Assembly (NCBI GenBank): GCA_029260965.1
Contig: JAJDCG010000001.1
Location: 184,012-248,011 of the forward strand
Direction of reading: 5' to 3'
Length of the DNA stretch: 64,000 bases
Origin: Candidatus Levyibacteriota bacterium
GTDB taxonomy: Bacteria > Patescibacteriota > Microgenomatia > Levybacterales > UBA12049
Shown one piece after another: positions 415-62,284 of the stretch. The notes under the pieces are model-generated. The model was given only the letters and a program-made list of their open reading frames with translations, was not told the origin of the DNA and ran no database searches. How positions within the stretch are numbered: the first letter of the stretch is position 1; each line of letters starts with the position of its first letter. Position numbers and translations under genes: made by a program.

Positions 415-2658
415 TTATTCTATGATCTCACTAACTTCAACTACCGTTAGGCCTGAGCGATGGAGTGGCTCAGATGGAAAAAGAGGATCTTTGATTTCAA
501 AATCAGGAAGACTGGATACTTGTTTGAAGTAAAATACTACATTTAGATAATTGTCAGGTGTTGGGCTGATTGATAGTGGTAGGATTCTTTTTGAAGTCTC
601 ATGATCATAGAATGATACAAACACATAAGGAGAGGTAACGTTTTCTTTCGCGAACCTAACCAGATTTGATATTTCTTTTTTGTTTAATCCTAGTCTTGTC
701 CCATAGTTATTAATTATAGAGCTGACACTTGATGTGGGAACAACCCTTCCTCTTGTCGGCTTTTCAAGCCGTCTTGAATTTGAACGGTAGTCATAGTTTA
801 GGGCATTATATACAACTCCATTTACTTCCATTGCGCCGTTTTCAAGAGTAGTAACTTCATAACCATTTCCATATTTTGGGTTGTCATTATAGACGTTGGT
901 TTGAATTTTTATGTTTACTTTTTGTCCAGGTGTGCCGTAGATATAAAGTGGAGATTTTTTACATACGGCATCTGGTGTCCCCTTGGTAGCACGGTTTGCA
1001 TCCCATGCCTTGTCATGACATCTGTCAAACGCATTCGTATCTTCTTGGAATCCTTGGGCAAGACATTGTTTTGTCGCAAGATCACGGCATGAGTTATCGG
1101 TTAGTTTTTGTTCTGGAGATGGCTCTGTTTGTTGTCGTTCTCTAATTACTGGTAATTCTGTTTTCATAAAGAATGTCTGAAGTTGGAGGTTGTTTTTATC
1201 GTTTTCCTGTTCCAGAGTAAATGTCGGATTAGCTTCCTGTGCATACGCTTTGGCACCGAGGACATTCTGGAAGTAATTATCTGGTAGTGTTGTTATAAAT
1301 TGTGCAAGAGTATTACTAAGTCTTATATTTTCTTCAGTTGATCCGTCATTTTTGTAGACAGCAGTAAGCGATGCTGCATATTCCTCTCCCAGGTTTCCTC
1401 CGCTTGAGTTTGATTCATCGATTTTCCCTATCAGTATGGTGTCGGTAGACAGGTGGGACAAAAATGAGTATGAAGAAAACTCATCTTCGGGTAGAACTAT
1501 TTCTTTTAGTGTGCCTGATGAAATATTGTATGAAAATAGTCCAGATTCACCTTCAGTTTGTGAGAGTTGAGTTATCGTAATACTTCCTGGAATTGTTTCC
1601 CATTGTACATTTGAATAGATATTTGTGTTTGGAAGATTGCCAAGTACCCGTCTTTCAAGAGTCTGTGTGTCTAGTAATTCAACAGTGTTTGGAGTTAGCA
1701 ATGCCTGACGAAAACCATCATTTAGTGATTTTCCGTCTCCTCTAGAGCCATCATAGCCAGCAAAAACAAGCGTTTTACCATCGGGAGACAGAGAGGGTTG
1801 TGTACCATATGTTCCTTCTTGCATTGATTCTACATCCTGTTTATTTCCTCCATCAAAATCTACAACGCTCATGCCATATGCCCAGCCAGCACCACTTGCA
1901 GGGTCATTTGGTAAAAATTTATCAGCAAATACCTTTCCGTCGTTAAGAACAGCTCTTGGATAATGAATTGGTTGATCTGCAACCTCATTATATAGGAGTT
2001 GTTTTTTTTCAGGATTTGAGAGATCTATCGCATAGACTCTTGAACGGCCTCCTGATAGTATTTCTGATCCATCAGCAAATGACACCTCCCAAGTTGCCAT
2101 GTACTTTTTGTTGGGAGATAGAACGTAATCATCAATTCCAAACCCATTGTCTGCTTTTACTACAGTTTCTGTTTGTCTATTTGCTATTTGATAGCTAACA
2201 ATTTGAGTGCCATGGTCGCGTTCATTAGTCTGGTCTATATATAACAGTCTCTGAGGAGAAAGCACACTAACTTTTTTGATGTTTAAAGGAAGCGTTGCCA
2301 GAGTTGTAGAATCGTTTGATTTCAGATTGACAGCCTTTATTTCTGAAGAAACCCCTGTCCACGCACCATAGATAAGTGTGTTTAGTCCACCAGCAGTAAT
2401 TGCATCAGGCACTTGTTCTCCTGCGAAGGATCCACTAGGAGTGCCAGTGTTATTATTGAGTTGATCATTGTTTTCTGTTAGAGAGCTTGCAGAATTGGAT
2501 AAAAGTAGTGCAATTGCCGTCAAAACTACAACAACAATAATTCCGATTATTATAAATAATCGTTTTTTTGAAGAACTAGGGGAGGCTGTTTGAGGCTGGT
2601 CAGGAACATCAGTTTGTATACTAGGTGTTGTATCTTGATTTTGTTGGGCAGAATCCAT
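415..2658 (-). CDS. Membrane-anchored secreted protein with PD40/TolB-like beta-propeller region and a Cys-containing C-terminal region
   Basis: 747-aa uninterrupted ORF. N-terminal Pro/Ser-rich stretch followed by a hydrophobic helix (LFIIIGIIVVVVLTAIALLL). Repeated SPDGK/SPNKK propeller-like motifs. Six Cys in the C-terminal third. Divergent from tuf. Confidence 0.6.
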   Translation of the reverse strand: MDSAQQNQDTTPSIQTDVPDQPQTASPSSSKKRLFIIIGIIVVVVLTAIALLLSNSASSLTENNDQLNNNTGTPSGSFAGEQVPDAITAGGLNTLIYGAWTGVSSEIKAVNLKSNDSTTLATLPLNIKKVSVLSPQRLLYIDQTNERDHGTQIVSYQIANRQTETVVKADNGFGIDDYVLSPNKKYMATWEVSFADGSEILSGGRSRVYAIDLSNPEKKQLLYNEVADQPIHYPRAVLNDGKVFADKFLPNDPASGAGWAYGMSVVDFDGGNKQDVESMQEGTYGTQPSLSPDGKTLVFAGYDGSRGDGKSLNDGFRQALLTPNTVELLDTQTLERRVLGNLPNTNIYSNVQWETIPGSITITQLSQTEGESGLFSYNISSGTLKEIVLPEDEFSSYSFLSHLSTDTILIGKIDESNSSGGNLGEEYAASLTAVYKNDGSTEENIRLSNTLAQFITTLPDNYFQNVLGAKAYAQEANPTFTLEQENDKNNLQLQTFFMKTELPVIRERQQTEPSPEQKLTDNSCRDLATKQCLAQGFQEDTNAFDRCHDKAWDANRATKGTPDAVCKKSPLYIYGTPGQKVNIKIQTNVYNDNPKYGNGYEVTTLENGAMEVNGVVYNALNYDYRSNSRRLEKPTRGRVVPTSSVSSIINNYGTRLGLNKKEISNLVRFAKENVTSPYVFVSFYDHETSKRILPLSISPTPDNYLNVVFYFKQVSSLPDFEIKDPLFPSEPLHRSGLTVVEVSEIIE

Positions 2659-21438: not shown

Positions 21439-23505
21439 ATGGCAGAAACACGTGATATAGAAATAACACCCACAGATGCTCTGCATTTTGGAGGAGAAGT
21501 AGACCATAGGATACTGGCAGGAGTTCTAAACCCGGAGCGCAAAAAATTGCAAGACTCTCGTGATTGGGCAGCAGAACTTCGTAAGTTGACCGACCAAGCA
21601 GGAGAAAAGACATTTAGGGAGGTCTTAAGAAGAAGTAGAGAACGATATCTTGATCAGACACAAATAGACAACCTCAAACTCATATTTGGTGGAGGATTTG
21701 CCAAGAGAGAAGAAGATGGCTCTATCAGCTTTTCTGATGATGTACCAAGGGAAGCTGAAGCTACACACGCAGAAGCAATCAGGTCAATGGAGATACCTCT
21801 TGCTTATCTGAAGTATGCAGATGTTATCAAGCGTGCAAAAGTTGAGGGTAGGAGGCCTGAAGACCTAGGAGGCTTAGACTGGACAAGTGTAAGAGAAAAG
21901 GCAATTGATGGGATAATCGGCATTGACGGCGTAAGGGATATTTTTCCTGAACTTTCTTATTTTGGTACTGATCGCCAAAAAAGAGACTATATAGAAATAA
22001 CACTTGCAAGAGACCCAGCTTTTGCAGAGAAGGTCAACACAAGTATGACCAGCATTGTAGAAGCGGCAAAAAGTCTTCCGCAGGCTCAAGAAGATCCAGA
22101 AACTGCTACAGCAAAAATTAAAAAAGAGAATGCGGAGCAGCGCTTAAATCAGGCAATGATGCAGGTATTAACTGAGATTAAAGCATTGGGCTTTGATGGA
22201 GTTGATGACGCATTTATGGATGGTCTTAAGAGCAGCATTGAGTCGCGTATTAGAACAGGTGCGAGTACAGAAATTGAGTCTGCGTTGCATATGGTTAGGG
22301 ATAAGTTGCAGCATAGCGATAAAGGTGTTTTGAAAGTTTTGGAAATAGATCAGTTAGATAGTCGTATTAAGAGGCTTACGGATGAGAGGCAAAAAGCTAA
22401 TGAATCAAAAAATACAGACAGAGCCCAAAAGCTTACTCAAGAAATAAATAATTCAGAAAGTGCTAGAGCCAAAATGGTTGATTCTTTTGGTGATGTTGAG
22501 AATATTGAGGCTGCAGAGCAGAAGATGAAAAGAATAGATTCTCTGACATCTGTAAATAAATTACCAACTGGAGAGTTTTCAAGTCAGCTTGCTCATGAGT
22601 TGCTGCAGGTAAGTAATGCGAAAAAAGAGATGGTAGAGGCAGATGAGGTAATTGTCGCGCGAGAATCTGAGGCAGGGGAACGTATGAAGCATCAGGTTGC
22701 AGATAGGCTTATTGCTGAAAGGGCATTGATAGATAGACTTGAGAGCATAATGCCAGATGCACTGAGTGATATTTTGGATGAACGATATGCTGAGATGCTT
22801 GTTAGGGAGAATAAAAGATTGGATATGATAGATAGGGAAAATAAAGAAGAGCTAGATGAGAAGACAGCAGCATATTTAAAATGGGTTGATCATGCTATAA
22901 AGACCAAATGGATAGAGAATGCAACAAGTAGAAAAAAAATCATTCATAAAGATCAAATAGGCAAAGATATTCTTCGGGCAACGTATCATGGAGATGAGGG
23001 TATACAGAGAATGATACTTCGTGATCTGAATTTAGGAATTGATTGGCAGCACATTGACCTTGAAACAGGTCTTACTGACGAACAAAAGCATATATTTAGT
23101 GAAGCTATGAATAGATATAAGCAGTCTTATCAAGAAAAATTGTTCTCAAGTTTTTTTGAGGCTAGGACCAGACGAGATGAAAAGATCATGAAGGAAAGTG
23201 GGAGAGGGGGCAAGCTTTCTCTGAAAGAACACGAATGGCAGCTCTTGCAGAAAAATTTTGGGTCACAGCTTGAATCAGGATTGAATGCATCCAAAGAAGG
23301 CAAGGCTGTTCTTGATGCACTTGCTTCAAGAGGCATTACCAAAGAAAGCTCAAGAGGAGATTGGATAAAATATCTCTTGGCTGCTCTTGGTGGAGGATTG
23401 ATATTAGCATCTGTGGCGCTTCCGGCTGCATTAGGGGTAGGTTCTGCAGTCGCTGGATCCGGTAGTTTAGGTGCTGCTTTTGGGTTAAATAATCGAAAAT
23501 CTTAG
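21439..23505 (+). CDS. Hypothetical large charged/coiled-coil protein with C-terminal Gly/Ala-rich hydrophobic anchor (tail-anchored topology predicted)
   Basis: 688 aa uninterrupted ORF. Highly charged helical sequence. C-terminus LLAALGGGLILASVALPAALGVGSAVAGSGSLGAAFGL. No P-loop or other catalytic motif recognised. Confidence 0.65.
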   Translation: MAETRDIEITPTDALHFGGEVDHRILAGVLNPERKKLQDSRDWAAELRKLTDQAGEKTFREVLRRSRERYLDQTQIDNLKLIFGGGFAKREEDGSISFSDDVPREAEATHAEAIRSMEIPLAYLKYADVIKRAKVEGRRPEDLGGLDWTSVREKAIDGIIGIDGVRDIFPELSYFGTDRQKRDYIEITLARDPAFAEKVNTSMTSIVEAAKSLPQAQEDPETATAKIKKENAEQRLNQAMMQVLTEIKALGFDGVDDAFMDGLKSSIESRIRTGASTEIESALHMVRDKLQHSDKGVLKVLEIDQLDSRIKRLTDERQKANESKNTDRAQKLTQEINNSESARAKMVDSFGDVENIEAAEQKMKRIDSLTSVNKLPTGEFSSQLAHELLQVSNAKKEMVEADEVIVARESEAGERMKHQVADRLIAERALIDRLESIMPDALSDILDERYAEMLVRENKRLDMIDRENKEELDEKTAAYLKWVDHAIKTKWIENATSRKKIIHKDQIGKDILRATYHGDEGIQRMILRDLNLGIDWQHIDLETGLTDEQKHIFSEAMNRYKQSYQEKLFSSFFEARTRRDEKIMKESGRGGKLSLKEHEWQLLQKNFGSQLESGLNASKEGKAVLDALASRGITKESSRGDWIKYLLAALGGGLILASVALPAALGVGSAVAGSGSLGAAFGLNNRKS

Positions 23506-47293: not shown

Positions 47294-48478
47294 ATGGCCA
47301 GAAAGAAGCTTAGTGAGTATCGTGCAAAGATCCTGTTGTCAGAAGAGCTTGGAAAAGATTATGCAGGTATTTCATTTGATGCATCAAGAGATGATTTTAG
47401 CAAACTCAGAGAGTTGGATCAGTCAAAATCCTATGTAATCAAAATCGATGAAGGTATAAAAAAAAGGATGAAAAAAGGGTTGGTCGTTCTTAACAAAAGA
47501 CCAACAGATTTGAAAGAAGAGATAGGAAAGTTCTCCAAGTTGGGATATAAACATTTTATAATCGAACCATTTATTCAGCACGATTCTTCATCAGAGAAAT
47601 ACTTTTCCATTGAACGAGTGAGAGACGGATATCAAGTGCTTTATTCAGAAAGAGGAGGAATCGATATAGAGGAAAATCAGAGTGGGGTAAAAAAAGCATT
47701 AATTACGAGTGAAGAATCGTTTGAAGAAATTAATTCTGGTATCAAATTGCCAAGAGGGATATTGAGTAAAATTGTTCAAGCATTTGATAAGTATTATTTT
47801 TCTTTTTTGGAGATAAACCCTCTGGTTGTTGAGAATGGAAGTTTTCATTTTCTTGATATAGCATCAACTGTTGATAGCGCAGGGCAGTTTTTCGTTAAAA
47901 ACGCATGGGATGAGCGCAATCTTAGAACAGGAGAGATCAAAGCAAAAACTAATGAAGAAAAAAAGATTGCAGAGTTGTCTGCGAAATCTCAGGCATCATT
48001 TGCATTTGATTTTCTCAATCCTGACGGTTCGATTTTCGTACTCCTCTCAGGAGGCGGTGCTAGCGTAGTTCTTGCAGACGAGGTATACAACCTTGGCTTT
48101 GGACGCGACCTTGCTAACTATGGGGACTATAGTGGAAATCCCAATGCTGAGGAGACATATATTTATACCCGAAATATTCTTAGTCTTCTTCTCAAATCAA
48201 AGGCCAAGAAAAAAGTTTTTGTCATCGCTGGTGGAGTTGCCAATTTCACAGATATACGTATAACTTTCAAGGGAGTTATAAAAGCGCTATCTGAGTATGA
48301 AAAAGAATTAAAAAAACAAAATGTAAAAATATTTGTTCGTCGTGGAGGTCCGCATCAGGAGGAAGGAATAATAGATATGGAAAAGTTTCTTTTGAAAGCA
48401 GGTTTAGGCGGAGTTGTGTCTGGTCCAGAGATGAAATTGCCAGAGGTGGTGTCGGTTGCGATAAGTGCGTTAAAGTAA
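47294..48478 (+). CDS. aclB: ATP-citrate lyase small (beta) subunit, ATP-grasp/citrate-binding part
   Basis: 394 aa. Alignable along its full length to the N-terminal 420 aa of eukaryotic ACLY (FLEINPLVV, LNPDG..., GGGASVV..D, ANYGEYSG, GGxANFT..V..TFKG, VRRGGP). Confidence 0.85.
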   Translation: MARKKLSEYRAKILLSEELGKDYAGISFDASRDDFSKLRELDQSKSYVIKIDEGIKKRMKKGLVVLNKRPTDLKEEIGKFSKLGYKHFIIEPFIQHDSSSEKYFSIERVRDGYQVLYSERGGIDIEENQSGVKKALITSEESFEEINSGIKLPRGILSKIVQAFDKYYFSFLEINPLVVENGSFHFLDIASTVDSAGQFFVKNAWDERNLRTGEIKAKTNEEKKIAELSAKSQASFAFDFLNPDGSIFVLLSGGGASVVLADEVYNLGFGRDLANYGDYSGNPNAEETYIYTRNILSLLLKSKAKKKVFVIAGGVANFTDIRITFKGVIKALSEYEKELKKQNVKIFVRRGGPHQEEGIIDMEKFLLKAGLGGVVSGPEMKLPEVVSVAISALK

Positions 48479-48480
48479 AT

Positions 48481-50286
48481 ATGCTAGATATAGATTTTTT
48501 AAGAAAAAAAGATTTTAAGATAGTAACTGTTGGGAGTCATCCTGGCATCATCCAGTCAATCCTTGATTTTGATTATTTGGCTGGTAAAAAAGAACCAAGC
48601 CTGATTGGGATAATTGCAAACGGGAGAAAATTTGAGAGATATTTTTTTGGTAAAAAAGAAGTGCTTATTCCTGTTTTTGCAACAGTTAGTGATATCTCAG
48701 AACATCTAAAAAAGGAAATTTCGCTGTTCTTAAATTTTTCCTCAGGTCGACGTGTTTTTTCATCCACTATGGAGGTTTTGGAGACATTTCCAAATCTTTT
48801 GGGAGGATCAATATTTGCAGAAAATGTACCCGAGATTCATTCACTAAAAACCTGGGCAAAGATAAAAAACAAAGACATTTTCATAATTGGTCCTGCAAGT
48901 GTGGGATTGATCATACCAGGGTTTCTCAAGATGGGTGCAGCAGGAGGAGTTAATTATAGGCAGCTTATTAACGCGAAGCTTTTGGATCAGGGCTCGGTTG
49001 CGGTATTATCTGGATCAGGAGGGATGACAAATGAAATCATAAATACGGTGACAGGATTTGGTGGTAGAGTATCGTTTGCGCTTTCTTTTGGGGGTGAAAG
49101 ATTTCCTATTCTTTCACCAGAAAATGCTTTTTTGGCAGCTGAGCGTGATCCTGCAACAAAAATTGTTGTGTATTTTGGTGAATTGGGGGGTACCGACGAG
49201 TATGATCTAAGTGAGCTTCTGAAGTCAAAAAAAGTCAGTAAAAAGGTTGTTTGTTATATCGCAGGGTCTGTTGCTGAGATGTTTGATGCTCCACCCCAAT
49301 TTGGTCATGCTAAAGCACTAGCAGAAAGTCAGGAGGAAACAGCTCGGGGAAAAAGAGAAATTCTTAAAAAGGCAGGGGCAAAAGTTGCCCAAACTTATCA
49401 GGAGTTTCTGGATTATATAAAGGATGAGACAGAGGTTTATGACACGCCTAAAAAAGAGTATAATACTCATATGGTTGAGCTGAATGATAGAAAAAAAGCA
49501 CTCGTGACAAGTGGCATCTCAGGTGATAAAAACGGTAATCCACAGCTTTTGGGAGAGGATCTTTTGGAATTTGCGAGCAAAAATTCATTTGCTAGTATTG
49601 CTTCTTCTCTTTTTCTCGGAAAAAAAATAAAATCCAAAGAACTCGAGGAATTTGTTGACTTTGTTTTAAGACTTTTGGTAGATCATGGACCATATGTTTC
49701 AGGTGCTGTTAATACTATTGTCACAGCACGTGCAGGGCGAGATCTTGTCTCATCTCTAGCAGCTGGTCTTCTGACAATAGGACCGAGATTTGGCGGAGCA
49801 ATAAATGAGGCAGCTGGTAACTGGTTGTTGGGTGTTAAAAGTGGGAAAAGTGTCGTGGATTTTGTTGAAGGGTTTGCTAGTAGAAAAGTCTATATTTCAG
49901 GAATCGGTCATAAAAAGTATAGGTCTGATTTTCCTGATCCTAGAGTCGCTGAGCTTTTGAAATTCGCGGACAAACTTTCAGAAAAAAGATTTACAAAATT
50001 TGCACTCGATGTGGAGAAGACAACAACTGCCAAAAAAGGAAACCTCATTCTCAATGTAGATGGTGCGATCGCTGCGGTGATGCTTGATATATTGTCTGAT
50101 AAAGAGAAAATGTCTGATGAGGAGCTGCAAAAACTTGCAGATATAGAGTTTTTTAATTCAATTTTTGTTCTTTCTCGCTCGGTTGGATTTATCTCACACT
50201 TTTTGGATCAAAAAAGGCTTGATGAGGGAATCTTCAGGCTCCCCGAGGATATGGTTCTTGAGACCGATGTGCTCAGGAAGAAATAG
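48481..50286 (+). CDS. aclA: ATP-citrate lyase large (alpha) subunit: CoA-binding/phosphohistidine domain plus citrate-synthase-like domain
   Basis: 601 aa. LDFDY, IIGPA.VG, QFGHA (phospho-His motif). C-terminal HGPYVSGAVNTIVTARAGRDLVSSLAAGLLTIGPRFGGA ... LILNVDGAIA ... FISHFLDQKRL match the ACLY CS-like domain to its end. Confidence 0.85.
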   Translation: MLDIDFLRKKDFKIVTVGSHPGIIQSILDFDYLAGKKEPSLIGIIANGRKFERYFFGKKEVLIPVFATVSDISEHLKKEISLFLNFSSGRRVFSSTMEVLETFPNLLGGSIFAENVPEIHSLKTWAKIKNKDIFIIGPASVGLIIPGFLKMGAAGGVNYRQLINAKLLDQGSVAVLSGSGGMTNEIINTVTGFGGRVSFALSFGGERFPILSPENAFLAAERDPATKIVVYFGELGGTDEYDLSELLKSKKVSKKVVCYIAGSVAEMFDAPPQFGHAKALAESQEETARGKREILKKAGAKVAQTYQEFLDYIKDETEVYDTPKKEYNTHMVELNDRKKALVTSGISGDKNGNPQLLGEDLLEFASKNSFASIASSLFLGKKIKSKELEEFVDFVLRLLVDHGPYVSGAVNTIVTARAGRDLVSSLAAGLLTIGPRFGGAINEAAGNWLLGVKSGKSVVDFVEGFASRKVYISGIGHKKYRSDFPDPRVAELLKFADKLSEKRFTKFALDVEKTTTAKKGNLILNVDGAIAAVMLDILSDKEKMSDEELQKLADIEFFNSIFVLSRSVGFISHFLDQKRLDEGIFRLPEDMVLETDVLRKK

Positions 50287-51346: not shown

Positions 51347-51417
51347 CCTCTCTCTGAGAGGGTAGCTTTGTTGGTGATTTTCAAGAAATGCTACCCCTCA
51401 CTAAAGAGGGGTTTTTT
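51347..51417 (+). promoter_or_regulatory. Leader with mutually exclusive hairpins (terminator cccctc-actaaa-gagggg-TTTTTT at 51394-51417 plus upstream antiterminator-like pairing)
   Basis: Segments read directly: A cctctctc, B gagagggtagc, C gctacccctc, D gagggg+T6. A pairs with B, B with C, and C with D. It lies 35 nt upstream of the 51456 gene and the lysK fusion. Confidence 0.45.
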
Positions 51418-51455: not shown

Positions 51456-51818
51456 ATGTTAAATATACAAATGCAAAAAAAAGACGACGGACGAGATCAT
51501 GTCTTGATAAATGCTCACAAGCTATTAAGGCAGGAATTTGAAATGTTGGAGAATTTTGCTGATAAAACCCTTGCGGGTGAAAGAGTAAAGAAATTAGTTA
51601 AAAACCATATAGCAAATTACCTGGGGGAGGGTAGTAGTCGTGGGTTTATTTCATTTATATATGGAGGAGTTGAAAAATTTTTGAGTTTGAGAGATGGTGA
51701 AATATATGCTTTGAACCCTGCAATTGACATGGGAAAAATTGAGCCTTTATCGCATGAAGAATGGTTTGATGCCAGGGAGGAAATTTTGGAACAGATTACT
51801 TCATTAAAATATTACTGA
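51456..51818 (+). CDS. Hypothetical protein
   Basis: 120-aa ORF with a ggtgaagg RBS. First gene after the leader structure. No motif recognised. Confidence 0.55.
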   Translation: MLNIQMQKKDDGRDHVLINAHKLLRQEFEMLENFADKTLAGERVKKLVKNHIANYLGEGSSRGFISFIYGGVEKFLSLRDGEIYALNPAIDMGKIEPLSHEEWFDAREEILEQITSLKYY

Positions 51819-51860
51819 TTTTCCCTGCCTTAACAAAGATAGGTATTTCAACTATAATCA

Positions 51861-54107
51861 ATGCATATGTTCTGGGCTGATGAATTATTGGGAAACAGAA
51901 AAGGTGATGAGTGGGTTAATGATGCATGGACACCATCGGGCATTGTGCATATGGGAGGCCTAAAAGGCCCTATGATCCATGATGTTTTGAGTCGCATCTT
52001 AAAGGATAAAAAAGTTAAGACAAAATATACATTTGGATTTGATGATATGGATCCAATTGACGGATTGCCTCAAGATCTTCATGAGTCGCATGAGAAATAC
52101 ATGGGAATGCCAATTTATATTGCTCCTGGACCAGATGGGAAGGGAACATTTGGGGAGTATTACAGCAACAAAATGAGCCATCTTTTCAAATTGCTAGGAA
52201 TTGAAGCAGAGATATATTTGGCTCATGAATACTACAAAAAGGGAATCTATAACGATGCGATTAAATTGGTATTAGATAATTCAGGAAAAGTTAGGAAAGT
52301 TTATGAAGAGATGTATAAAAAATCCATAAGTAATGATTGGTATCCTTTTCAGATAATTTGTCCGGAGTGTGGTAAGTTGGGAACGACAAAAGTAGTCGGA
52401 TGGGATGGTAAGGAGGTTGAATTTGTCTGCTCAGAGGATCTTGTCAAATGGGCACATGGTTGCGGAGCAGAGGGTAGAATTTCACCATTTAATGGTAATG
52501 GAAAAATTCCATTCAAGGTCGAGTGGGCTGCAAAGTGGTGGGTGTTTGGAGTGACGATTGAAGGTGCTGGAAAAGATCATGCTTCCGCAGGAGGCACTTA
52601 TGATGTAGCAAGAAAAATTGTCAAAGACGTTTTTGGTAAGGATCCACCCCTAAAGCTTCCTTATGAGTTTTTTTTATCACATGGGAGAAAAATGTCATCG
52701 TCAAAAGGACTAGGCCTTACAGGAGAAGAGCTTTTGGAAGTTTTGCCGGCTGAGTTGGTAAGATTTTTGATGATAAAGAATCATCCAAACAGAGCAGTTG
52801 AATTTGAACCAAAAGGAACGGATATAATTCCTAAATTGTATGATGATTATCAAAAAGCAGCGGATGCATATTTTGAAAAAACAGATGAGGATCTTGCTCG
52901 TATTTTTGAACTTTCACAAATAGGTGAGGTTAAAAAACCGCCGAGCGTTCGGTTTTCGGCTCTGGCTCAATGGGTGCAGATGCCCAATATGAGTGGTGCG
53001 ATAAAAAAAGAAAATGCAGAAGAATGGGCAAAGTATGCAAGAGTTTGGATTGAGAAATTTGCGCCCGAGTCAGAAAAGTTTGTTGTCTCGGAAAGTCTTC
53101 CCGAATTAGCAAAAGAGCTAACTGAACAGCAAAAAAATTTATTGAAAAAAATAGCAGAAGAGCTTGACAAAGACTGGGATGCAGAAGAGTTCCAGACAAA
53201 AATTTATGATTTAGGAAAAGAACTTAGCCTAAAAGGTAAAGAGACTTTTTCGGCAATTTATTTGTCATTAATAGGCAAAGATCACGGACCAAAGGCAGCA
53301 TGGCTCATCCTCTCTCTTGATAAAGATTTTGTGAAAAAAAGATTTAATGAAACAGCGGTGAAGGTTGAAAAGTTAAACATTAAAGATGAAGAAAATACTA
53401 ATATTGAATTTTTAAAAAAGCCTGAAATTTTTTCTATAGATTTAGGATTGTTTGAAAAGCATCCATCAATTTCTGTCGGAGTAGCTCTCATAAAAGGTGT
53501 TAGAATTGAAAAAACAAATCCGGATCTCGAGAAGGAGAAAAGCCAGTTCTTAAATTCTCTGACTGGATTGACTACCCAAGAGTTGGGACAGTATCCAGAA
53601 ATTGTTAGTTATCGTAATCTTTATAAAGAAATGGGGGTTGACTGGCACTCCAGGCGTCCAAGTCCTGAAGCGCTTCTACGTCGGGTAGCTTTGAACAAAG
53701 GCTTATACACTATAAATACAGCAGTCGATGCCTATAATCTGGTAGTTATGAAGCATAGAGTTTCAATTGGTGCCTTTGATCTGGACAAGCTAGAATTTCC
53801 GACAGTGCTGAGATTTGCAGGGGAGGGTGAGGAGATACATCTTCTTGGAGATAAAGAGCCTACCGCATACAAAGAAGGAGAAATAGCTTATTTTGATCAA
53901 AATGGTGGATTTAATATGGACTTTAATTATCGTGATGCCAAAAGAACCGCAGTTACAGAATCTACGAAGAATCTTTATATAAATGTTGATGGAGCTTATG
54001 ACATTTCTCCTAAAAAAGTTGAAGAAGTTCTAAGAGATGCAATTGAGATAATTATAAAATACTGCGGTGGAGAATTAGAAGTATTTGGACTTGAAAAAAT
54101 ACATTAG
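51861..54107 (+). CDS. lysK: Class I lysyl-tRNA synthetase fused to a C-terminal B3/4-like (COG3382-type) domain
   Basis: The N-terminal ~520 aa match archaeal-type LysRS-I (FWADELLG, TPSGIVHMGG [HIGH-like], CPECG zinc motif, EGAGKDH, KMSSSKG [KMSKS]). The C-terminal ~220 aa (PSPEALLRRVALNKGLYTINTAVDAYN...) resemble the PheT B3/4 domain family. Confidence 0.85.
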   Translation: MHMFWADELLGNRKGDEWVNDAWTPSGIVHMGGLKGPMIHDVLSRILKDKKVKTKYTFGFDDMDPIDGLPQDLHESHEKYMGMPIYIAPGPDGKGTFGEYYSNKMSHLFKLLGIEAEIYLAHEYYKKGIYNDAIKLVLDNSGKVRKVYEEMYKKSISNDWYPFQIICPECGKLGTTKVVGWDGKEVEFVCSEDLVKWAHGCGAEGRISPFNGNGKIPFKVEWAAKWWVFGVTIEGAGKDHASAGGTYDVARKIVKDVFGKDPPLKLPYEFFLSHGRKMSSSKGLGLTGEELLEVLPAELVRFLMIKNHPNRAVEFEPKGTDIIPKLYDDYQKAADAYFEKTDEDLARIFELSQIGEVKKPPSVRFSALAQWVQMPNMSGAIKKENAEEWAKYARVWIEKFAPESEKFVVSESLPELAKELTEQQKNLLKKIAEELDKDWDAEEFQTKIYDLGKELSLKGKETFSAIYLSLIGKDHGPKAAWLILSLDKDFVKKRFNETAVKVEKLNIKDEENTNIEFLKKPEIFSIDLGLFEKHPSISVGVALIKGVRIEKTNPDLEKEKSQFLNSLTGLTTQELGQYPEIVSYRNLYKEMGVDWHSRRPSPEALLRRVALNKGLYTINTAVDAYNLVVMKHRVSIGAFDLDKLEFPTVLRFAGEGEEIHLLGDKEPTAYKEGEIAYFDQNGGFNMDFNYRDAKRTAVTESTKNLYINVDGAYDISPKKVEEVLRDAIEIIIKYCGGELEVFGLEKIH

Positions 54108-60790: not shown

Positions 60791-62284
60791 CTAAACTTTT
60801 TCTGTCACCTTATATTCAAGTCTCTTATTAAACATGAGTTGAGTGTGGGATATAAGAGCCGGGAGTGCTGAGAGGAAAAAACCCACAAGAGGCATGAGTA
60901 GGAATTCAAATGGAAAAAGAATTTTACGACTGAGACTCAGGTTTTGATTTGCAGGTCTAATTTTGTACTCTAGATACATCATGCCAAGCAGCGCTAGTGT
61001 ACAGAAGCTGAGGATAAATCCCGCCAATTGCGGTAGTTGAAAGCCTAGTGATGTTCTGGAGAAAACTGGATTTAAAAATGCCATTATATTGGCAGCAACG
61101 GTTATGATAAACCAATTGGTCGGCCAGAGAATGTGATCGAGAAATACATTGAATGTGAGAACAGTCTTTTTATAAAAAGGAACTCCGGGTACTGTAAACC
61201 ACCATTTTATAAATAATGGGTTGTCTGATACGCCCCATGACCAACGTCTTTCCTGGGAGTATTTATTTTTAAGACTTTTCATATATGTTGTCGAGTGGGC
61301 AGCATCCATGGATGTTCTCAGGAAGATCGGATCGACCGTAACGCGACCTTTGGTTTTGAAGAATGCTTTGAAGAAGATTCGATAATCCTCTGGTATAACA
61401 TCCACATCCCAGTACCCTATCTTTTTCAAAAGCTTAAATGACAGTGAGTAGGTGGCATGAGTGGTGAGTCTGTCTTTTTGAATAAGCAGAGCTGTTCTCC
61501 AGAGACTGCCAAAGAATGAAATTATGCGGATAGGGGATGGTACTTTCCATATATTGTTGTAGTAAACAACAGCAGATTGCCAGAATCTATAGTGTCTTTC
61601 TGGACTTTTAAGAAATGCATGACTCAAAAAGGCAAAGTGTTCTTTGTGAAATATTGAGTCAGCATCAACTGATGAAACAGTTGCGTAGTCAAGATCAAGT
61701 TTCCCATCAACAAAAAGTTTTTTGTAAGCAACTCGTCCAGCGTATGCTTCATTTGAGGATTTACCTTTTACTTCACCTTCTACGTCAGGATGAAAGGTCA
61801 CGAAAAGACTTCCAAATTTTCCTTTAAATCTTTTTAAGAGAATTTCTGCTCTTTCTTTTGCTTCATGCTCCCGTTCTTCCATTGCGAGGATGATGTGAAT
61901 ATATTTCTTGGGAAGCGATTGTCTCGTTAAGGCTTCAAGGGTGGTACCAACCTTTGCAGCGCTTTCACCAAAATTTGGAATTACAAGTACATGATGGACT
62001 TTGTCAAAGTCTTTGAGTTTTTTTGCTTTAATATACCAGTTTTTTTCCTCTGCTGCCTTTACCTTTTTTGCGGCCAGAGATGTTAAGATTATTAGAGATA
62101 TAGATTTATATAGCCAGTACATATCGAAAAAAAGTATGAAGTAGGCAGTGGCTGTCGGGAGAAATAGAGACCCCCAAATTGGAGACAATACAATTGTCCA
62201 TACGAGCATTCCTGGTAGAAGTTCAAGAGTTCTTCTGGTTTTTATAGGGTAGCGTGTAAAGATTTTTTCAAAAAAGCTAGTCAT
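60791..62284 (-). CDS. Membrane-embedded family-2 glycosyltransferase (processive, cellulose/chitin-synthase-like)
   Basis: 497 aa. VLVIPNFGE, DAD (VDADSIF), and QERRWSWG (the Q-x2-RW motif). Flanking TM helices. Confidence 0.8.
   Translation of the reverse strand: MTSFFEKIFTRYPIKTRRTLELLPGMLVWTIVLSPIWGSLFLPTATAYFILFFDMYWLYKSISLIILTSLAAKKVKAAEEKNWYIKAKKLKDFDKVHHVLVIPNFGESAAKVGTTLEALTRQSLPKKYIHIILAMEEREHEAKERAEILLKRFKGKFGSLFVTFHPDVEGEVKGKSSNEAYAGRVAYKKLFVDGKLDLDYATVSSVDADSIFHKEHFAFLSHAFLKSPERHYRFWQSAVVYYNNIWKVPSPIRIISFFGSLWRTALLIQKDRLTTHATYSLSFKLLKKIGYWDVDVIPEDYRIFFKAFFKTKGRVTVDPIFLRTSMDAAHSTTYMKSLKNKYSQERRWSWGVSDNPLFIKWWFTVPGVPFYKKTVLTFNVFLDHILWPTNWFIITVAANIMAFLNPVFSRTSLGFQLPQLAGFILSFCTLALLGMMYLEYKIRPANQNLSLSRKILFPFEFLLMPLVGFFLSALPALISHTQLMFNKRLEYKVTEKV

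Follow-up and report, generated by a model that had tools for sequence, protein, structure and literature searches.

A CtdA-like B3/4 domain fused to lysyl-tRNA synthetases of both structural classes in Microgenomates: a candidate tethered post-transfer editing module

Within a 64,000-nucleotide stretch of the genome of a Candidatus Levyibacteriota bacterium (GenBank assembly GCA_029260965.1, contig JAJDCG010000001.1, positions 184,012 to 248,011 of the forward strand), referred to here in its entirety as the window, a single open reading frame (ORF) encodes a class I lysyl-tRNA synthetase (LysRS) that continues, across a flexible linker, into a C-terminal module of the B3/4 family. The module has the fold of the tRNA deacylase CtdA, is carried by both class I and class II LysRS in the Microgenomates, a lineage of the candidate phyla radiation (CPR), and is more strongly conserved than the class I synthetase to which it is joined. 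On the evidence of sequence, a known editing fold has been recruited to a synthetase that is not known to have one, and this has happened in both of its structural classes. The module is proposed to edit mischarged tRNA(Lys) as a tethered post-transfer editing domain, a reading to which we assign a probability of about 0.6.

The synthetase body is that of a class I LysRS, as the first-pass annotation of the DNA, made from the letters alone, had suggested for the N-terminal part of the protein. In addition to the Pfam matches in Table 1, residues 4-496 score 341 bits against the NCBIfam equivalog TIGR00467 (lysS_arch), for which the cut-off is 147.55, and residues 6-495 align end to end with the class I LysRS of Pyrococcus horikoshii (1IRX; phmmer E 2.9e-69, 31% identity). 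The region of the Anticodon_2 match aligns with the C-terminal part of the same protein, and the predicted N-terminal body superposes on its structure (Foldseek E 1.2e-38, TM-score 0.81 when normalised by target length). All of the motifs quoted at first pass are present: HMGG (residues 30-33), CPECG (167-171), EGAGKDH (234-240) and KMSSSKG (277-283) in the synthetase, and RPSPEALLRR and VDAYN in the C-terminal module. A cluster of four cysteines (C167, C170, C190 and C201) lies in the catalytic domain; these residues are invariant in 48 homologues, together with G32, K277, M278, S281, K282 and G283, and H30 is kept in at least 90% of them. Since the equivalog model is matched well above its cut-off, the catalytic motifs are invariant and the fold is that of 1IRX, the encoded synthetase looks active.

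The C-terminal domain had been described in the first-pass annotation as an independent B3/4-type unit resembling that of the beta subunit of phenylalanyl-tRNA synthetase (PheRS) and of COG3382 stand-alone proteins, and this description is supported, with refinements. Membership of the family is clear, as the Pfam B3_4 model is matched with 86.3 bits, where the gathering score is 29.3, over profile positions 2-174 of 174. Independence is likewise supported by AlphaFold2 modelling of the full-length protein from an alignment of 48 sequences, which places a domain boundary at the linker. The mean predicted local distance difference test score (pLDDT) of this model is 88 and its predicted TM-score (pTM) is 0.61, with one disordered stretch at residues 501-513, suggesting two well-folded bodies on a flexible tether. 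In structure the module is nearer to CtdA than to PheRS. Residues 514-748 modelled alone (pLDDT 96, pTM 0.92) have the canavanyl-tRNA(Arg) deacylase CtdA as their top Protein Data Bank (PDB) matches, namely the proteins of S. enterica (9mkl) and P. canavaninivorans (9f7e), with E-values near 1e-16, TM-scores of 0.82-0.84 and 233 of 235 columns aligned, and the C-terminal body taken from the full-length model gives a TM-score of 0.82 to CtdA. The editing domains of PheRS beta rank lower, at a TM-score of about 0.6, and sequence searches return the same order; a plain PheRS-type B3/4 domain was therefore rejected in favour of a CtdA-like one on this structural ranking. The module begins some 60 residues ahead of the Pfam match and takes in the N-terminal helical part that has been described as specific to CtdA (PMC12449066). 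As modelled, it is a complete CtdA-like unit, comprising a B3/B4 core and this helical part.

The fusion is not a peculiarity of the window. A database protein (P0001) is 100% identical to the window protein and has the same four Pfam domains, and the best 120 database homologues (55-70% identity) all contain both PF01921 and PF03483 and are 717-776 residues long, except for two truncated entries. Where names are given, these homologues are recorded as 'lysine--tRNA ligase' of Levybacteria, Microgenomates or Patescibacteria. A scan of GTDB, with one genome per species, found a relative of the module in 334 genomes; of the best 80 loci, a class I LysRS body immediately precedes the module in frame in 75, and a class II body in five. 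A survey of relatives, proposed at first pass, thus places the fusion lineage-wide in at least 75 species-level genomes, with Levy-, Gottesman-, Davies- and Roizmanbacteria among the named hosts. Many records of carriers are metagenome-assembled genomes labelled Gammaproteobacteria, Lysobacterales, Limnocylindrales, Methylomirabilota, Acidiferrales or the like (loci L003, L005, L008, L011, L014-L016 and others); such labels are probably generic or wrong, or the contigs mis-binned.

A frameshift joining two genes, visible for instance as a stop where the two parts meet in related strains, had been named at first pass as a sign against a genuine fusion. No such interruption was found: of the 82 loci, 77 read through the junction in one continuous ORF of 700 codons or more. 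Contig ends truncate three of the other five, the fourth consists of two overlapping genes, and the fifth is a genuine stand-alone copy. An artefact of assembly or gene calling, or a decaying remnant, might be suspected from the existence of the split version, in which a class II lysS and the B3_4 gene overlap (L001), and from the many short B3_4-only database entries that derive from short contigs. This explanation is effectively refuted by the continuity of the ORF in independent loci, by the presence of both domains in all of the best 120 homologues and by the high proportion of invariant columns in the module. Fusion through a frameshift or a misassembly was ruled out on the same continuity. 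Judged from these loci, the fusion is genuine and common among Microgenomates.

When the module alone was used as the query, the N-terminal parts of a further set of matches proved to be the C-terminus of class II LysRS, with the motif-3 region GxPPxxGxGxGxDRLxM...FP, and the module that comes after it is 60-71% identical to that of the window. Full-length class II LysRS of this kind, with an OB-fold anticodon domain, tRNA-synt_2 and B3_4, number in the dozens, measure 715-740 residues and come from Microgenomates and Patescibacteria. The sources that name the class I and class II fusions use plain 'lysine--tRNA ligase' or 'lysyl-tRNA synthetase'. The two classes of LysRS share only their substrates, and on sequence grounds the module has either moved between them or survived a switch from one to the other. 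Its presence on two structurally unrelated enzymes suggests that its function is linked with lysine or tRNA(Lys) and not with a particular protein scaffold. Neighbour-joining with bootstrapping was applied to 119 modules, with archaeal stand-alone relatives as the root. One clade, with 100% support, takes in every class-I-fused module, nine of the class-II-fused modules and the stand-alone forms, and the other class-II-fused modules branch basally, outside it; internal nodes are poorly supported, so only this coarse result is used.

Two loci depart from the fused arrangement. In L001 (3647-5699) a class II lysS of 455 codons and a B3/4 gene of 232 codons are separate and overlap by 14 nt, which points either to a split operon or to a frameshift, and in L002 (5001-5714) a 237-residue module 58% identical to that of the window stands alone among unrelated genes. 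At E <1e-3, an exhaustive profile search returned 5,483 cluster representatives, the majority of them free-standing and 215-240 residues in length. The longer architectures include LysRS-II with B3_4 and DUF2000, LysRS-II with tRNA_bind, B3_4 and HD (P0364), B3_4 with tRNA_bind (P0381), B3_4 with DUF2000, and B3_4 N-terminal to either arginyl-tRNA synthetase (ArgRS) or LysRS-II. The presence of B3_4 beside a dedicated tRNA_bind domain in P0364 and P0381 suggests that B3_4 is not merely a tRNA-binding part. In sister Microgenomates, DUF2000 or HD alone can occupy the same C-terminal site of LysRS-II (P0325, P0335, P0357, P0364 and P0214 represent the DUF2000 and HD variants, including a free B3_4-DUF2000 protein). 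The only PDB relative of DUF2000 is the uncharacterised 2GAX (E 0.033). DUF2000 may have a PTH2-like fold; a literature search on this domain was without result.

Conservation is concentrated in the module rather than in the synthetase. Among class I fusions, the modules have a mean pairwise identity of 0.71, compared with 0.57 for the bodies, and invariant columns make up 36% of B3_4, 14% of the catalytic domain and 0% of the linker. Loci of Gottesmanbacteria retain 63-70% identity to the window protein in the module, but only 37-44% in the LysRS body; across the GTDB loci, identity drops as low as 35-40% in the body but stays at 62-70% in the module. As read from these alignments, the module is under stronger purifying selection than the synthetase, which argues against a decaying or merely structural appendage.

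The residues that line the equivalent pockets of CtdA and PheRS were located in an alignment of 386 modules, of which 158 are fused to class I and 104 to class II LysRS, with CtdA and PheRS fragments (Table 1). The asparagine and the glycine of the catalytic scaffold are kept, in 98-100% of the class-I-fused and 95-100% of the class-II-fused modules. Each of the substitutions N105A, G116H and G116W is known to inactivate CtdA (PMC12449066). The three specificity residues of CtdA are all replaced in the Lys-fused modules, and two further polar positions, D687 and N689, are near-invariant there. ArgRS-fused modules, by comparison, retain the CtdA-1 pattern ...GVTCRRWN(W/Y)R(Q/E)... On these alignments the catalytic scaffold is conserved and the specificity pocket follows the partner synthetase, with the one exception of P0438. 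In this protein (764 residues), and also in P0451, the N-terminal end of a class II LysRS bears a B3/4 domain whose pocket is CtdA-1-like (VLCKAWNWRE). Modules of the CtdA-1 type occur at the N-terminus of ArgRS in L083 (4001-6676), P0485, P0456 and P0378, the last with two copies; in these fusions the known canavanyl-tRNA(Arg) deacylase would be present in a cis form. The nearest stand-alone relatives of the window module that were found are archaeal (P0230 and P0231; 34% identity, same YRD motif) and may belong to the uncharacterised 'CtdA-2' clade (PMC12449066).

Table 1. Features of the LysRS fusion gene and its product, with pocket positions matched to CtdA
Feature	Residues	Nucleotides in window	Strand	Basis or remarks
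Promoter-like site TTAACA-17-TATAAT		51830..51858	+	11/12 consensus matches
LysRS-I + CtdA-like B3/4 fusion gene	1-748	51861..54107	+	single complete ORF, 748 aa + stop
Class I LysRS catalytic (Rossmann) domain	14-354	51900..52922	+	Pfam PF01921 tRNA-synt_1f, E 5.3e-87
Helical anticodon-binding domain of LysRS-I	415-497	53103..53351	+	Pfam PF19269 Anticodon_2, E 1.8e-08
Inter-domain linker	~501-522	53361..53426	+	pLDDT <50 at 501-513; 0/22 columns invariant
CtdA-like B3/4 module	~523-748 (226 aa)	53427..54104	+	Pfam, AlphaFold2, Foldseek, conservation
Pfam B3_4 match	584-736	53610-54068	+	PF03483, E 2.5e-24
Module motif RPSPEALLRR	599-608			carries R599, R607, R608
Module motif VDAYN	622-626			carries N626
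Module motif GAFD	637-640			carries G637, F639
Module motif GFNMDFNYRD	683-692			carries N685, D687, N689, D692
Equivalent of CtdA N105	N626			PheRS N254, positions hydrolytic water; 99-100% in Lys-fused modules
Equivalent of CtdA G116	G637			95-98% in Lys-fused modules
Equivalent of CtdA E118 (specificity)	F639			F in 90-96% of Lys-fused modules
Equivalent of CtdA C166 (specificity)	N685			N in 89% of class-I-fused, T in 75% of class-II-fused modules
Equivalent of CtdA Q173 (specificity)	D692			D in 98-99% of Lys-fused modules

From the architecture, the fold and the pattern of conservation we infer a hydrolytic activity of the module, with tRNA(Lys) as its substrate and a basic amino acid as the residue removed. 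In the mechanism envisaged, the synthetase body would charge tRNA(Lys), and the tethered module would sample the 3' aminoacyl end as the tRNA leaves the synthetic site, or would rebind it before capture by EF-Tu. The ester bond would be cleaved when it carries a non-cognate basic residue that LysRS cannot reject, and Lys-tRNA(Lys) would be spared. N626 would position the hydrolytic water and G637 would make room in the pocket, on a scaffold common to CtdA and PheRS, with specificity arising from the polar and acidic pocket peculiar to the Lys clade (F639, N685, D687, N689 and D692). The first-pass annotation had spoken of a possible trans-editing module; being tethered to the synthetase, the module would act in cis or as a tethered factor. 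As the C-terminus is differently placed in the two LysRS classes and the linker is disordered, 'tethered trans-editing' is favoured over a fixed shuttling of the CCA end between two sites.

The identity of the edited amino acid is a matter of guesswork, held far more loosely than the editing reading itself. Arg-tRNA(Lys) is placed first because the family is built around arginine-like side chains and two aspartates are invariant in the pocket. Ornithine or other shorter basic analogues, by the logic of a double sieve, would come next, followed by natural lysine antimetabolites such as thia- or oxa-lysine. The LysRS-II of E. coli rejects homocysteine, homoserine and ornithine before transfer. 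E. coli LysRS is reported to mischarge tRNA(Lys) with arginine, threonine, methionine and other amino acids, with no deacylation of the products (PMC5370406). This mischarging, which goes uncleared, represents a known and unfilled need of LysRS and supports an editing role for the module.

Several observations weigh against such a role. The replacement of three CtdA pocket residues means that activity is not transferable by homology, and the conserved asparagine is no proof of catalysis, since PheRS N254A retains most of its activity (PMC12449066). Pocket type does not follow the partner synthetase in every case, as P0438 demonstrates. Other Microgenomates, for example Woesebacteria, have a plain LysRS-II that lacks the module, suggesting that its function is not universally required. 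In addition, the geometry between the two bodies is undefined in the AlphaFold2 model, as its pTM and disordered linker indicate, and the C-termini of the two LysRS classes differ in their position relative to the acceptor end, so that a true shuttling of the CCA end in cis would be conjectural.

The module could instead be a non-catalytic appendage that binds tRNA or handles its 3' end, either raising the affinity for tRNA(Lys) or protecting and handing over Lys-tRNA(Lys). Domains of the Trbp111/EMAPII type raise tRNA affinity on other synthetases, the invariant basic motif RPSPEALLRR could contact RNA through R599, R607 and R608, and the pocket residues are unlike those of both characterised relatives. 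Extra affinity could also help an enzyme that, as a class I LysRS, needs bound tRNA for the activation of lysine (PMC7373986). We nevertheless consider this explanation unlikely. Conservation is centred on the equivalents of the aminoacyl pocket (N626, G637, F639, N685, D687, N689 and D692) and not only on basic residues of the surface; some relatives possess a separate tRNA_bind domain beside B3_4; and the other modules that sister LysRS-II carry at the same site include HD, which is a hydrolase family.

Alternatively, a hydrolytic module need not act on mischarged tRNA(Lys). It may be an ordinary CtdA-type deacylase that acts in trans on another tRNA, such as canavanyl-tRNA(Arg), and is fused for the sake of co-expression or stability. 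The only characterised members of the family do act on tRNA(Arg) (PMC10018355; PMC12449066), and the stand-alone copy in L002 belongs to a related bacterium. This account is quite improbable, given that the counterparts of E118, C166 and Q173 are all changed while the ArgRS-fused modules keep TCRRWN(W/Y)R(Q/E), and that fusion to LysRS of both classes is seen in hundreds of proteins, plus a split operon. Action on the correct product, Lys-tRNA(Lys), by regulated hydrolysis or by transfer of lysine to a non-ribosomal acceptor, has a precedent of a kind in LysX, in which MprF fused to LysRS channels Lys-tRNA to such an acceptor. The invariant acidic residues D687 and D692 could bind the ammonium group of lysine, and the module is more strongly conserved than the synthetase body. 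However, hydrolysing its own product constitutively would commit the enzyme to a futile cycle, we know of no transferase activity for the B3/B4 fold, and the gene neighbourhood (MurB, a TrpR-like protein, Ham1 and an ATP-citrate-lyase-like pair) contains no pointer to an acceptor pathway; the prospect is accordingly remote. Post-transfer editing of mischarged tRNA(Lys) is the reading that is retained.

Translation of the fusion gene probably starts at the ATG at 51867 (M3) rather than at 51861, since M3 is invariant in the 48-homologue alignment and the homologue consensus opens with MFWAD. The promoter-like site in Table 1 lies 3 nt ahead of the ATG at 51861 and 9 nt ahead of that at 51867. 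It is a consensus match only, and promoter-like sites in the region are, in total, no more numerous than expected from shuffling. No purine run resembling a Shine-Dalgarno sequence was seen in the 9 nt between this site and the ATG at 51867, and the mRNA may be leaderless or nearly so. Directly upstream is an ORF of 120 codons (51456-51818, + strand) with no Pfam match, preceded by a terminator-like GC hairpin and T-run (51393-51412) that closes murB. The ATP-citrate-lyase-like pair consists of 47294-48478 (+ strand), with ATP-grasp Citrate_synth_N and Citrate_bind domains resembling one subunit of the enzyme, and the adjoining 48481-50286 (+ strand), with CoA-ligase and citrate-synthase C-terminal domains resembling the other; it would be an unusual central-carbon enzyme for an apparently small, Levybacteria-like CPR genome. 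Elsewhere in the window, ORFs at 415-2658 (- strand, 747 codons), 21439-23505 (+ strand, 688 codons) and 60791-62284 (- strand, 497 codons) had no Pfam match at E 1e-5. A tblastn search of the 64-kb window for a class II lysS gave nothing except the B3/4 match itself.

Full-text literature searches found no paper describing a fusion of LysRS with a B3/4 domain. The CtdA papers of 2023-2025 and a 2026 paper on the mining of tRNA deacylases make no mention of LysRS or of fusions, and the former do not mention the ArgRS fusion of CtdA-1-type modules. It is an even chance, in our estimate, that Microgenomates possess the first LysRS with a dedicated post-transfer editing domain: a CtdA-family deacylase whose acidic pocket has been re-tuned for a basic non-cognate residue (arginine, ornithine or an antimetabolite), and which has been kept or exchanged across the switch between class I and class II. 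If so, the proofreading module would be more indispensable to these organisms than the choice of LysRS, and, together with the CtdA-ArgRS fusions, it would represent a family of modules that edit basic amino acids in cis. The conservation of the module, its presence on both LysRS classes and its kinship to CtdA, an enzyme of canavanine defence, together point to some specific danger to the accurate translation of lysine codons in these ultra-small bacteria, which scavenge amino acids. Questions now open to testing are which amino acid puts lysine decoding at risk, whether the uncharacterised CtdA-like clades act on other substrates, and how one module can serve two scaffold geometries. The ArgRS-linked and LysRS-linked modules also constitute a natural set of pocket variants for engineering the specificity of deacylases.

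Among known systems, the canonical class I LysRS (1IRX; TIGR00467) matches residues 1-500 over their full length and in all motifs, but it ends near residue 520 and has no editing domain, whereas the window protein has an added C-terminal module. Hydrolytic sites that lie apart from the synthetic site are familiar from the N2 domain of ThrRS, from AlaRS and AlaX, from the INS domain of ProRS and from CP1 of Ile-, Val- and LeuRS. Such synthetases resemble the present fusion in combining both functions in one polypeptide and in having free-standing paralogues of the editing domain (AlaX, ProX and ThrRS-ed), and differ from it in using other folds. To our knowledge, none of these appended domains is attached to LysRS, and none is common to two structurally unrelated synthetases for one amino acid. 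In one review, editing by LysRS is described only as pre-transfer and only for class II, no post-transfer editing domain of LysRS is described, and the free-standing ProXp-ST1 and ProXp-ST2 hydrolyse Ser- and Thr-tRNAs mischarged by several synthetases, including LysRS (PMC7373986). The activity of these two proteins implies that mischarging of tRNA(Lys) is physiologically corrected in some bacteria. They are unlike the module in being free-standing and in targeting small polar residues. Moreover, their fold belongs to the YbaK/INS superfamily, which is unrelated to B3/B4.

The B3/B4 domain of PheRS beta, a hydrolase of Tyr- and m-Tyr-tRNA(Phe), has the same Pfam family and core fold as the module and is likewise an editing domain built into a synthetase. 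Only two of its residues are held in common, N254 (N626) and F267 (F639), and other positions differ, with H265 replaced by G637, G318 by D692 and R244 by Y616. The PheRS combination of H265, G318 and E334 with embedding between B1/B2 and B5 was not found in the window module, which lacks the PheRS-specific helices and the flanking B1, B2 and B5 domains and is terminal, on a flexible linker. CtdA is closer, sharing the fold of the whole module including the CtdA-specific helical insert, the essential asparagine and glycine and an E-A-L-x-(K/R)-R motif. It differs in its sequence, which is only 18-19% identical to the module, and in being free-standing and associated with ArgRS, where here the partner is LysRS. 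The module has F639, N685 and D692 where CtdA-1 has E118, C166 and Q173 (or E), and is fused to LysRS-I rather than forming a free-standing protein of about 230 residues. An orthologue of CtdA was ruled out on the three pocket residues, and these, together with the architecture, lead us to treat the module as a distinct, Lys-associated clade.

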